Positions 7,581 to 9,752 of a stretch of 16,675 nt of DNA are shown in pieces. A program made the position numbers and the translations under genes. Each line of letters begins with the position of its first letter. The stretch's first letter is position 1. The notes under the pieces are model-generated. The model worked only from the letters and a program-made list of their open reading frames with translations, was not told the DNA's origin and searched no databases. Source of the DNA: a virus (Duplodnaviria; Heunggongvirae; Uroviricota; Caudoviricetes); the IMG/VR virus record IMGVR_UViG_2639762982_000011; one strand, given 5' to 3'.

Positions 7581-7610
7581 GTTTTAAAAATCAAGACTTA
7601 TTAGAGCAAT
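7581..7610 (-). promoter_or_regulatory. Operator-like element ATTGCTCTAATAAGTCT (P1 C1-operator-like) fused to a conserved ATTTTTAAAAC element; putative repressor-controlled promoter
   Basis: Minus-strand read ATTGCTCTAATAAGTCTTGATTTTTAAAAC. 13/17 match to the P1 C1 operator consensus ATTGCTCTAATAAATTT as recalled. Same bipartite 30-nt element recurs at 9723..9752 (26/30 identical). TTGCTC-N17-TAAAAC geometry. Confidence 0.5.
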
Positions 7611-8116
7611 TATTGTTGATGGAGAAGCGCGTTTTCATACTCCCTGACCATTAACGTAAGTACGCCGTGACTCCTGAAAACACGCGCCACTTCAATCTTA
7701 TCTTCCAGCGCGAACGCAATTTTACTTAGACCAATTTTCTTCAGGAGATCAATCTTTGCTGGACCGTCATTTCTGTCATCGGTGGCAGGACGCATAGATA
7801 GCAAAGGCTCAGCCCCATTTGTTACGTGCTTACGCAACCAGGCTCGTGTTTTATCCCTGGCTATCTCACAGCGCCCGGTTACAAACCAGAGGGTGTAAAT
7901 GCCGGACAACTGGCGCACCATATCAATAACTGGAGTGATGGGAGCATCAGTGTCACAGGCAAGGTTAAACTCGTTCCAGTGCTCTGTTAATGCACCTTTG
8001 CCAGGTGGTGGAAGTAAATGCAGCCTGTCTTCCGTTGCCTCTGATATCGTCCCATCAATATCTACTATGACGATGTACGGACGTTCCTGGTGTGCGTGTT
8101 TATTGAAAATACTCAA
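7610..8116 (-). CDS. HAD-superfamily phosphatase-like protein (168 aa)
   Basis: N-terminal motif IVIVDIDGTIS (DxDGT, HAD motif I). Start is TTG at 8116 with strong SD GAGGAGG upstream. Substrate not inferable. Confidence 0.7.
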   Translation of the reverse strand: MSIFNKHAHQERPYIVIVDIDGTISEATEDRLHLLPPPGKGALTEHWNEFNLACDTDAPITPVIDMVRQLSGIYTLWFVTGRCEIARDKTRAWLRKHVTNGAEPLLSMRPATDDRNDGPAKIDLLKKIGLSKIAFALEDKIEVARVFRSHGVLTLMVREYENALLHQQ

Positions 8117-8188
8117 ATGCCCTCCTCATTGGACGAAAAAAATGCTGGTGGGAGCACTCCACCAGCATTAAAAGTGACACTGTAACTA

Positions 8189-9394
8189 TCAGCGAACGTA
8201 AATAGTGCCGCCGTTCTCTTTTTCCCATGCATCGCTACGTGCATAGCAAACATCGAGAAGTCTTCTTGCCGCAGTTTCCTCTAAACCCAATTCGACAACC
8301 AACTGCTCATGACGGCGGGTAACCACATCAAACAGGGTATGCAGCCCTTTAGTTGCCAGATCATCAATGAATTCCGGTTCGAACGGCAGCTCTGCATCTG
8401 CTAACATAACCTCTTGCGCCCACTCAACTCGACGGACCAGTTCCGGGCGGCGGCTTTCCATCTCTTTACAGATCAATTCATGGAAGAACTCTACCCAACC
8501 TTCCGGCTGGAACTCGCGGAAAATTGCCAACGGCTGGAAGTTTGGCATCAACCATTCGTTGATTCGGATATCAATGGCATAGCCCATGTCGCAGCAGAAC
8601 TGATAAGCAAAGTCCAGCTTAGAAACGATATAAGGACGCTCGTTATTGAACTCTTTAGGCGATGAGATCCCATAAGCCAGGAGGCGCGGGAAGAAGGAGA
8701 TTTGCCCTAACGTCGGATGAAGTTTGCTTGCAGGGAAACGGCGCTCAGTAATGCCATACATTTCCTTCTTGAGCGTCGCAAATTTGGCATTCTCATTAAC
8801 CAGCGCGGTAACCTCTGCTTTTTTATTAGCAAATGCCACGCGCGCTTCGCTTGCATCTTTAATAGTTTTTTTGAGCTGTTGGTTAAGGTCGGCGACCTGC
8901 TTACGCAGTTCCTGTCGCTCGCTTTTAGCTTTGTTATAGCGTTTCTCAAGGTTAAAAGGATCAAGTTTCATGATCTCTTTATATTGAGATTTTAGCGTTG
9001 AAATCTGTGAGTTCCGCAGTTCAACCATCGCGGTCATTTCATTGAGTTTTGTTTCCAGCTCAATGCTTATACGTTCGGCATTATCAGCACGCTGGTTGGC
9101 GTCATGCGTCGCATCGTCGATCGCGTCCTGTTGCTGGCGTTTCAAATGTTCAATTTGCAGCTGAAGCTCTTCAATTTCTTTACCCTTCAGACCGAGATCC
9201 AACTGCATATTTTCAGCTGCATCTACCAGGGAGTTATGGCTATCAGCTTCTGCGTTATAAACATCAATAAGCTGTGCGTGAAGCATCTCCGCTGACTGAA
9301 CCGCATTATCAAAAAAAACGTGCTGTGAGGTCATCACAACTAACGCGGCGTTGCGCGGCCCGGATGTTCTGGATAATGGCCGGGATACCGGCAT
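8189..9394 (-). CDS. Coiled-coil protein with uncharacterised C-terminal domain (401 aa as called); 5' end probably extends to ATG 9452 across a frameshift
   Basis: N-terminal half is heptad-rich and charged (EELQLQIEHLKRQQQ..., RQELRKQVADLNQQLKK); C-terminal about 200 aa is globular-looking. No SD before ATG 9394 or 9334. See homopolymer at 9311..9318. Confidence 0.75.
   Translation of the reverse strand: MPVSRPLSRTSGPRNAALVVMTSQHVFFDNAVQSAEMLHAQLIDVYNAEADSHNSLVDAAENMQLDLGLKGKEIEELQLQIEHLKRQQQDAIDDATHDANQRADNAERISIELETKLNEMTAMVELRNSQISTLKSQYKEIMKLDPFNLEKRYNKAKSERQELRKQVADLNQQLKKTIKDASEARVAFANKKAEVTALVNENAKFATLKKEMYGITERRFPASKLHPTLGQISFFPRLLAYGISSPKEFNNERPYIVSKLDFAYQFCCDMGYAIDIRINEWLMPNFQPLAIFREFQPEGWVEFFHELICKEMESRRPELVRRVEWAQEVMLADAELPFEPEFIDDLATKGLHTLFDVVTRRHEQLVVELGLEETAARRLLDVCYARSDAWEKENGGTIYVR
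9311..9318. other. A8/T8 homopolymer tract at a frame junction inside the 5' region of the coiled-coil gene
   Basis: ORF starting at ATG 9452 (MSTSAQNQSIENVSIPDVLNAGIPAIIQNIRAAQRRVSCDDLTARFF) stops immediately after the tract. Removing one T fuses it in frame to the 8189..9394 ORF. Confidence 0.8.
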
Positions 9395-9453
9395 TCAGGA
9401 CATCAGGGATAGATACATTTTCGATTGATTGGTTTTGTGCTGAAGTGCTCATT

Positions 9454-9672
9454 TCAAAGTTCCGTATTAGCTTGTGCTTCGGTCATTTTTCCTAAGTATG
9501 AAGGAGGAAGGACTACGCAATTTGTATCCAGTCCCTCACCTATGGCAGCCTGTAAAATTCTGGCTAAGGTGAGTCTCTTGTTGCGATACCTGGTGATGAC
9601 ATGCCTGATACCGCCGGTCGGCGTAACAAAGGCGATCAGCCAGTAGTGATATTTCCGTCGGAATGGCCACAT
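9454..9672 (-). CDS. Hypothetical small protein, 72 aa
   Basis: ATG at 9672 with AGGTG 4 nt upstream. Stop TGA lies 1 nt before ATG 9452 (TGAaATG), suggesting coupling. No recognisable motif. Confidence 0.35.
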   Translation of the reverse strand: MWPFRRKYHYWLIAFVTPTGGIRHVITRYRNKRLTLARILQAAIGEGLDTNCVVLPPSYLGKMTEAQANTEL

Positions 9673-9686
9673 AGTGCACCTTTTTG

Positions 9687-9752
9687 ATTGCTCTAATAAA
9701 AAACGTGATGAGTGTACATCACGTTTTAAAAATATGGAATTATTAGAGCAAT
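9687..9752. promoter_or_regulatory. Inverted pair of P1 C1-operator-like sites flanking a hairpin
   Basis: ATTGCTCTAATAA at 9687..9699 (+) and its reverse complement TTATTAGAGCAAT at 9740..9752 bracket the hairpin. The minus-strand copy is followed by ATTTTTAAAAC as at 7581..7610. Confidence 0.5.
9698..9727 (-). terminator. Bidirectional terminator-like hairpin (CGTGATG-AGTGTA-CATCACG) with A-run/T-run flanks
   Basis: 7-bp stem, extendable to 11 bp with the flanking A/T. On the minus strand the stem is followed by T6. Sits just downstream of the 9754..10455 gene stop. Confidence 0.5.

Follow-up and report, generated by a model that had tools for sequence, protein, structure and literature searches.

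Intergenic elements matching the phage P1 C1-repressor operator beside a type IC hsd cassette in a P1-derived plasmid segment

What is the role of three copies of a 13-nucleotide sequence that recur between the genes of a viral stretch of DNA which also carries a restriction cassette? The stretch, IMG/VR record IMGVR_UViG_2639762982_000011 (Caudoviricetes; 16,675 nucleotides, hereafter the window), holds ATTGCTCTAATAA at 7598-7610 on the minus strand, at 9687-9699 on the plus strand and at 9740-9752 on the minus strand. An earlier note, made from the letters alone, had listed these three copies and proposed that they are operators of the C1 repressor of phage P1, that the element is a P1-like phage-plasmid and that its hsd genes occupy a variable defence locus. 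A scan of the window recovered all three copies as exact matches. The comparisons described below make it almost certain that each 13-mer forms the core of a 17-bp asymmetric P1 C1 operator and that the replicon is P1-derived (plasmid pSvP1_F or one near-identical to it) and encodes a wild-type-like C1. This identification follows from P1 homology, from the position of the sites relative to annotated operators, from the presence of a cognate C1, from the enrichment of such sites and from their conservation in a relative whose DNA is ~70% identical.

The consensus that the note had given for the P1 operator proved correct: ATTGCTCTAATAAATTT is stated in PMC8546580 as the asymmetric consensus, 17 bp long, of the 22 operators of P1. 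The three sites match it at 15/17, 14/17 and 14/17 positions, with positions 1-13 exact in every case. Allowing at most 3 mismatches to the 17-mer, the window contains four sites against 0.07 expected, a number reached in none of 200 shuffles; for the 13-mer with at most 2 mismatches there are likewise four matches against 0.54 expected (reached in 1 of 200 shuffles), the fourth being a copy with one mismatch at 13360-13372 on the plus strand. The note had named the three exact copies and overlooked a degenerate site (Table 1). Over the whole replicon pSvP1_F, 14 operator-like 17-mers are found where ~0.6 would be expected, and they stand at places typical of P1, namely upstream of ref, ssb and lpa, in immI and in the c1/coi region.

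The two minus-strand copies belong to 30-nucleotide elements, ATTGCTCTAATAAGTCTTGATTTTTAAAAC at 7581-7610 and ATTGCTCTAATAATTCCATATTTTTAAAAC at 9723-9752 (both minus strand), whose identity of 26/30 was reproduced on recomputation. Both elements close with an exact ATTTTTAAAAC (7581-7591 and 9723-9733, minus strand). The description of every copy as fused to this conserved element thus holds for the minus-strand pair and fails for the plus-strand copy, which is followed by AAAA and the 3' arm of a hairpin, with no ATTTTTAAAAC. The closeness of two copies to stop codons also stands: the pap stop codon ends on the first A of the pap-proximal site (7610), and the site next to pmgQ begins 1 nucleotide beyond the stop of that gene (9754-9756).

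Each of the three sites has an annotated counterpart in P1. At all three orthologous positions the GenBank record (AF234172/NC_005856) carries the feature 'protein_bind, phage repressor C1', under the names OpmgT (Op88), OpmgRb (Op86b) and OpmgRa (Op86a). OpmgT stands directly after pap, OpmgRb and OpmgRa between pmgQ and pmgR, and Oppp and O26 further along; the P7 record (AF503408) annotates the same sites, the pap-proximal one there being called 'Op(hea)'. Base-by-base alignment shows the block composed of Op86a, the hairpin and Op86b to be identical to that of P1, and Op88 differs from its P1 counterpart at one base, position 14 (window 7597), where P1 has A and the window has G. Among 31 distinct Op88 variants this change occurs only in the window and in pSvP1_F. 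Rare changes within the operator core are seen in the Op88 of other contigs (ATTGCACT, ATTGCCCT and AATGAA). The cognate repressor, whose presence on the replicon the note had left to be looked for, is encoded at 137497-138348 of pSvP1_F, is annotated as 'phage repressor protein C1' and is identical to P1 C1.100 at 282/283 amino acids, the single difference presumably lying at the temperature-sensitive mutation.

The sites are also kept where the surrounding DNA has changed. Cronobacter phage JK004, a P1 relative with ~70% identical DNA and a C1 that is 76.7% identical, holds ATTGCTCTAATAATTTT at the Op86a position (16/17), the inverted core TTGCTCTAATAA at the Op86b position and ATTGCTCTAATAAATAT directly after its pap homologue, at the Op88 position (16/17), while the intergenic bases beside these operators have diverged. 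When the inverted operator pair was used as a search pattern, with the 12-nucleotide operator cores fixed, it matched 2 loci among species-representative bacterial genomes and no fewer than 120 P1-like IMG/VR viral contigs, with an Op86 block spanning 64-65 nucleotides in all of them. Within near-identical P1-like contigs, the stretch of four bases that separates Op86b from the ribosome-binding site of pmgR (9683-9686) is hypervariable (CTAC, CTAT, CCAT, ATAC, TTAC, CAAA, CCAA and others); the operators flanking it are invariant in those contigs, though the search pattern had fixed their 12-nucleotide cores.

Could the 13-mers instead be A/T-rich repeats that arose by chance, or a promoter motif of a general kind with no link to a repressor? 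The motif is indeed rich in A and T, as is the intergenic DNA around it. Against this stand the excess of sites in the window and on the replicon, their exact coincidence with annotated P1 operators and their retention in JK004 beside diverging bases. Enrichment and orthology together exclude this explanation, to which we assign virtually no probability.

Table 1. Features of the window discussed in the text (dG, folding free energy; z, z score; ORF, open reading frame; aa, amino acids).
Feature	Position	Strand	Remarks
Type IC hsdM-hsdS-hsdR cassette (EcoR124I-like)	1298..7345	+	hsdR 4229-7345; convergent with the Op88 promoter; in place of P1 pmgT-U-V
Small ORF, 28 aa (MNTAFKIIMAAIYFWLFSIIFGGIVAHG)	7425..7511	-	AGGAG ribosome-binding site; first ORF downstream of Op88
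G+C-rich hairpin	7539..7561	both considered	dG -21.3, z -4.4 (+); dG -18.3, z -3.4 (-)
Predicted sigma-70 promoter P1pmgT	7566..7594	-	-35 TTGATT 7589-7594 (abuts operator), N17, -10 GAAAAT 7566-7571; P1 annotation
Predicted sigma-70 promoter P2pmgT	7581..7609	-	-35 TTGCTC 7604-7609 (in operator), N17, -10 TAAAAC 7581-7586; P1 annotation by alignment
C1 operator, orthologue of P1 OpmgT (former Op88)	7594..7610	-	ATTGCTCTAATAAGTCT; 15/17 to consensus; one change from P1
pap (HAD/PNKP-type phosphatase)	7610..8116	-	stop overlaps Op88 by 1 nucleotide
pmgS (PmgS-like head morphogenesis gene)	8189..9452	-	+1 frameshift in the window
pmgR, 72 aa	9454..9672	-	small ORF downstream of Op86a/b; P1 annotation; PMC9024508
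C1 operator, orthologue of P1 OpmgRb (former Op86b)	9687..9703	+	ATTGCTCTAATAAAAAA; same as P1; inverted relative to Op86a
Hairpin, intrinsic-terminator-like, between Op86a and Op86b	9698..9727	-	stem 9700-9710/9717-9727, loop TACACT 9711-9716, U6 9698-9703
C1 operator, orthologue of P1 OpmgRa (former Op86a)	9736..9752	-	ATTGCTCTAATAATTCC; same as P1; contains PpmgR -35 TTGCTC
Degenerate C1 operator, orthologue of P1 Oppp (former Op83)	12453..12469	+	TGTGCACTAATTAATTT; 4 mismatches
C1 operator, orthologue of P1 O26 (former Op82)	13360..13376	+	ATTGCACTAATAATTTT

The window as a whole bears out a P1 origin, and qualifies the view of the element as a P1-like phage-plasmid. In a megablast search against phages, P1, P7, SJ46, RCS47 and other Punavirus genomes are ~97-99% identical to it over 152-1200 and 7421-16463, and over this backbone part the identity to P1 itself is ~97%. 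The gene order is that of P1 (24-7-25-26 / pmgL...pap / upfM-O), with synteny from gene 24 to upfO. Among plasmids, pSvP1_F (NZ_MN510446.1) matches the window over its full length bar one extra base, and 132 further plasmids cover at least 80% of it. pSvP1_F is a 139-kb P1/IncFIB hybrid from a porcine enterotoxigenic Escherichia coli O157, with genes for the LT, STb and EAST1 toxins and many insertion sequences, mostly of the IS91 family; it also has two immI (icd/ant) regions. The two ends of the window (1-151 and 16464-16675) show no P1 homology and consist of IS91-family elements that lie in opposite orientations in pSvP1_F, and tail gene 24 is truncated at ~16463, where the P1 homology stops. 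The backbone and its synteny are those of P1, and the replicon is a rearranged P1/IncFIB hybrid with many insertion sequences rather than a clean phage-plasmid.

This state of the replicon opens the possibility that the sites are P1 operators by descent and yet relics, in a defective P1/F hybrid that has lost its lytic programme and in which C1 only silences leftover genes. The bounding of the P1 segment by IS91-family elements with the loss of part of gene 24, the insertion sequences, IncFIB replicons and enterotoxin genes of the plasmid and the frameshift of pmgS in the window all agree with such a history, and the conversion of P1-like phage-plasmids into plain plasmids has been recorded (PMC10879196). 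On the other hand, intact copies remain of c1, coi, lpa, pacA/B, immI and many genes of morphogenesis, the operators and C1 are essentially unmutated and the frameshift, being missing from the RefSeq copy, may be a sequencing error in the window. We consider a relic unlikely, though it deserves more than passing attention.

A few points count against the reading of the three sites as C1 operators that control these promoters. A simple sigma-70 consensus scan calls neither P2pmgT nor PpmgR, and in P1 too both are listed as 'predicted'. The experimental support for Op86 and Op88 consists of the GenBank annotation and of work reportedly published by Citron et al. in 1989, and a full-text literature search for the operator names matched unrelated papers only. 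The hybrid nature of the replicon, its many insertion sequences, the cut gene 24 and the frameshifted pmgS mean that the operators may now regulate a defective prophage. We infer C1 occupancy of the sites and the exact promoters and start sites; the replicon may still be inducible or may have lost this capacity.

If the sites function as their P1 counterparts are annotated, C1 would bind each asymmetric operator in the plasmid (lysogenic) state and block RNA polymerase, with the corepressor Lxc expected to aid it. Op88 would do so by overlapping or abutting the -35 of the promoter or promoters that read from pap into the variable slot, whose transcript here would cover the 28-codon ORF and then continue antisense toward hsdR. 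Op86a and Op86b, being inverted, would bracket the promoter of pmgR-pmgS, so that bound C1 could shut out RNA polymerase upstream of the start and again at the start or a little beyond it. Loss of C1 activity would release these transcripts, which are early or morphogenetic, from repression.

Where exactly is the pmgR promoter within this block? The earlier note had pointed to a promoter-like geometry, TTGCTC-N17-TAAAAC, at both minus-strand operators. These hexamers are the ones predicted in P1 for P2pmgT and for PpmgR, whose -35 TTGCTC lies in Op86a and whose -10 TAAAAC lies at 9723-9728; the comparisons disfavour TAAAAC as the -10 of Op86a. The bases AAAAC of ATTTTTAAAAC at this site form the 5' flank of the stem of the hairpin between the two operators. 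When 19 distinct variants of that hairpin are compared, 97% of the cells are paired; compensatory double changes occur at two of the pairs, and nine single changes allow G:U pairing on the pmg-sense strand but not on the other. We infer that it probably serves as the intrinsic terminator for the pmgN-pmgQ operon upstream.

These observations give rise to a tentative alternative with a real prospect of being right, in which the operators stand and ATTTTTAAAAC at Op86a is no -10 at all. AAAAC would then be terminator flank, and the -10 of pmgR would be supplied by the hairpin loop, a TAnnnT hexamer (TACACT, 9711-9716), placing the start near 9704 within Op86b and allowing C1 to clamp the promoter from both sides. 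The pairing and covariation on the pmg-sense strand, together with the U6 tract, fit this arrangement. Natural variants of the supposed hexamer (TGAAAC, TAAAGC, TGAAGC) alter its positions 2 and 5 with pairing maintained, and TGAAAC and TGAAGC would cripple a -10, whereas the T, A and T of the loop (hexamer positions 1, 2 and 6) are invariant as the middle three bases vary (TACACT, TACGCT, TATCAT); hence the true -10 may lie in the loop. Furthermore, a transcript that started near 9716, as a TAAAAC -10 implies, would include most of the hairpin and the U-tract and would risk terminating itself. Against the loop promoter speak its poor -35 (TTCCAT, TTTTAC), the small number of independent lineages among the diverged sequences, whose sampling is biased by the fixed operator cores, and the behaviour of the TAAAAC at Op88, which has no hairpin there and whose T1 and A2 are retained in every variant.

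For Op88, the comparative data favour P1pmgT or P2pmgT as the promoter. In the 31 sequence variants T1 and A2 of the P2pmgT TAAAAC are unchanged, and A2 and T6 of the P1pmgT -10 are invariant; JK004 retains the geometry of P1pmgT as TTGTTT-N17-AATAAT. Because the key -10 positions of both are kept, either promoter, or both, may be real.

Just downstream on the minus strand lies the G+C-rich hairpin of 7539-7561. Read on the plus strand, the hairpin and the TTTTATTTTC that comes after it look like a terminator placed downstream of hsdR; on the minus strand it would stand at, or very close to, the 5' end of the RNA made from the Op88 promoter. A purely plus-strand role as the hsdR terminator was considered and dropped, since P1 and P7 have no hsd and yet conserve the hairpin just as well, and since the changes among its variants are compatible with U:G pairing on the minus strand. 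The transcript from the Op88 promoter may carry it as a 5' stem-loop, in place of a terminator role or in addition to one. The 28-codon ORF that follows is hydrophobic and has a strong ribosome-binding site. RefSeq calls a 44-amino-acid version of it, SJ46 is annotated with a 'membrane protein' over the corresponding stretch, and JK004 shows weak similarity at the N-terminus (30% identity and 65% positives over 20 amino acids). Pfam and PHROGs searches with the 28-residue peptide gave no match. Among close relatives, 14 nucleotide variants yield 12 peptides, nearly all of the variants being non-synonymous, so that purifying selection is not evident and the coding status of this ORF is doubtful.

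Immediately past the stop codon of this ORF the resemblance to P1 ends, and it is here that the hsd cassette enters. Homology with P1, P7, 813R1 and MH422554 runs from Op88 through the ORF and breaks right after its stop; beyond the break these four share the start of pmgT, and the window passes into the 3' flank of the convergent hsdR. The comparison of P1-like loci gave 18 junctions of the hsd type and ~53 of the pmgT type, and past the pmgT start the cargo differs once more among P1, P7 and 813R1. The encoded HsdR matches the HsdR of EcoR124I (Protein Data Bank entry 2w00) with 2288 bits over residues 1-1038, that is, all 1038, which identifies the system as type IC. The variability of the slot thus agrees with the note's 'variable defence locus'; its label of defence does not carry over to the alternative cargo, since neither P1 pmgT-U-V nor the P7 hea operon is known to act in defence. 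A further hairpin of 10-11 bp (TCTTGCGGGTT...AACCCGCAAGA, 7361-7390) stands just past the hsdR stop and has no T-run after it on either strand.

The convergent arrangement raises the possibility that the phage state reaches into restriction. The Op88 promoter faces the 3' end of hsdR, a search for a minus-strand terminator between the two found none, and the 3' untranslated region of hsdR is fully complementary to the small-ORF mRNA; derepression at Op88 would on this basis drive antisense transcription across the small ORF and into hsdR. One may speculate that type IC restriction is in this way coupled to the lysogenic or lytic state and, separately, that Op86 works as a composite module, proposals that we regard as quite improbable. 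Were they true, restriction would follow the phage state, for instance with less self-restriction during lytic replication, and the terminator hairpin at Op86 would carry the -10 of the next promoter in its loop, clamped by two inverted operators.

The genes between the two operator loci call for brief comment. A run of 8 A at 9311-9318 (T8 on the coding strand), against 7 in RefSeq pSvP1_F and in P1, produces an early +1 frameshift in pmgS, which consequently appears in the ORF list with 401 rather than 420 amino acids. The T8 is either a homopolymer sequencing error, as its absence from the RefSeq copy would allow, or the mark of a real pseudogene. The interval from pmgS to pap contains a terminator-like hairpin at 8141-8169 on the minus strand, with 11 pairs followed by TTTTT, which suggests that pmgR-pmgS is a transcription unit separate from pap. 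The published P1vir transcriptome has nothing on pmgR, pmgS or pmgT.

How much of this is new? The operators are already known, as are their consensus, the places where they lie and the P1 homology that surrounds type IC hsd loci, and the discovery value of the locus is small, as the literature and GenBank annotations have held these facts since the late 1980s to 2004. Its practical use lies in annotation: the window can be described as a segment of a P1-derived plasmid in which five C1 operators occur and an EcoR124I-type hsd cassette fills the variable slot beside pap. The covariation of the Op86 hairpin, the doubt over the -10 of PpmgR and the convergence of Op88 with hsdR are small, testable refinements for P1 specialists.

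Set beside known systems, the locus is closest to P1 itself. Op88, Op86a and Op86b agree with the P1 sites in position, orientation, spacing and predicted promoters, Op86a and Op86b are identical and Op88 is 16/17, and the same repressor is encoded on the replicon; the difference lies downstream of Op88, where P1 has pmgT-U-V and the window a convergent hsd cassette. P7 shows the same operator-promoter module at the pap boundary, followed there by another operon, which marks the module as the fixed edge of a variable slot; the P7 cargo, the hea operon, is co-oriented with the promoter, whereas the cargo here is inverted. The association with type IC loci is likewise an old one. The P1 record notes homology of its flanks to sequence downstream of the R124/3 hsdR and to the flanks of the EcoDXXI hsd genes, and the title of Tyndall et al. 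(1997, Mol Microbiol 23:729; cited in PMC12707154) speaks of type IC hsd loci flanked by P1 DNA. With EcoR124I, EcoDXXI and EcoprrI the present cassette shares flanks from this P1 region, and its HsdR is essentially that of EcoR124I; it differs from them in lying within a largely intact P1 backbone rather than on a conjugative plasmid.

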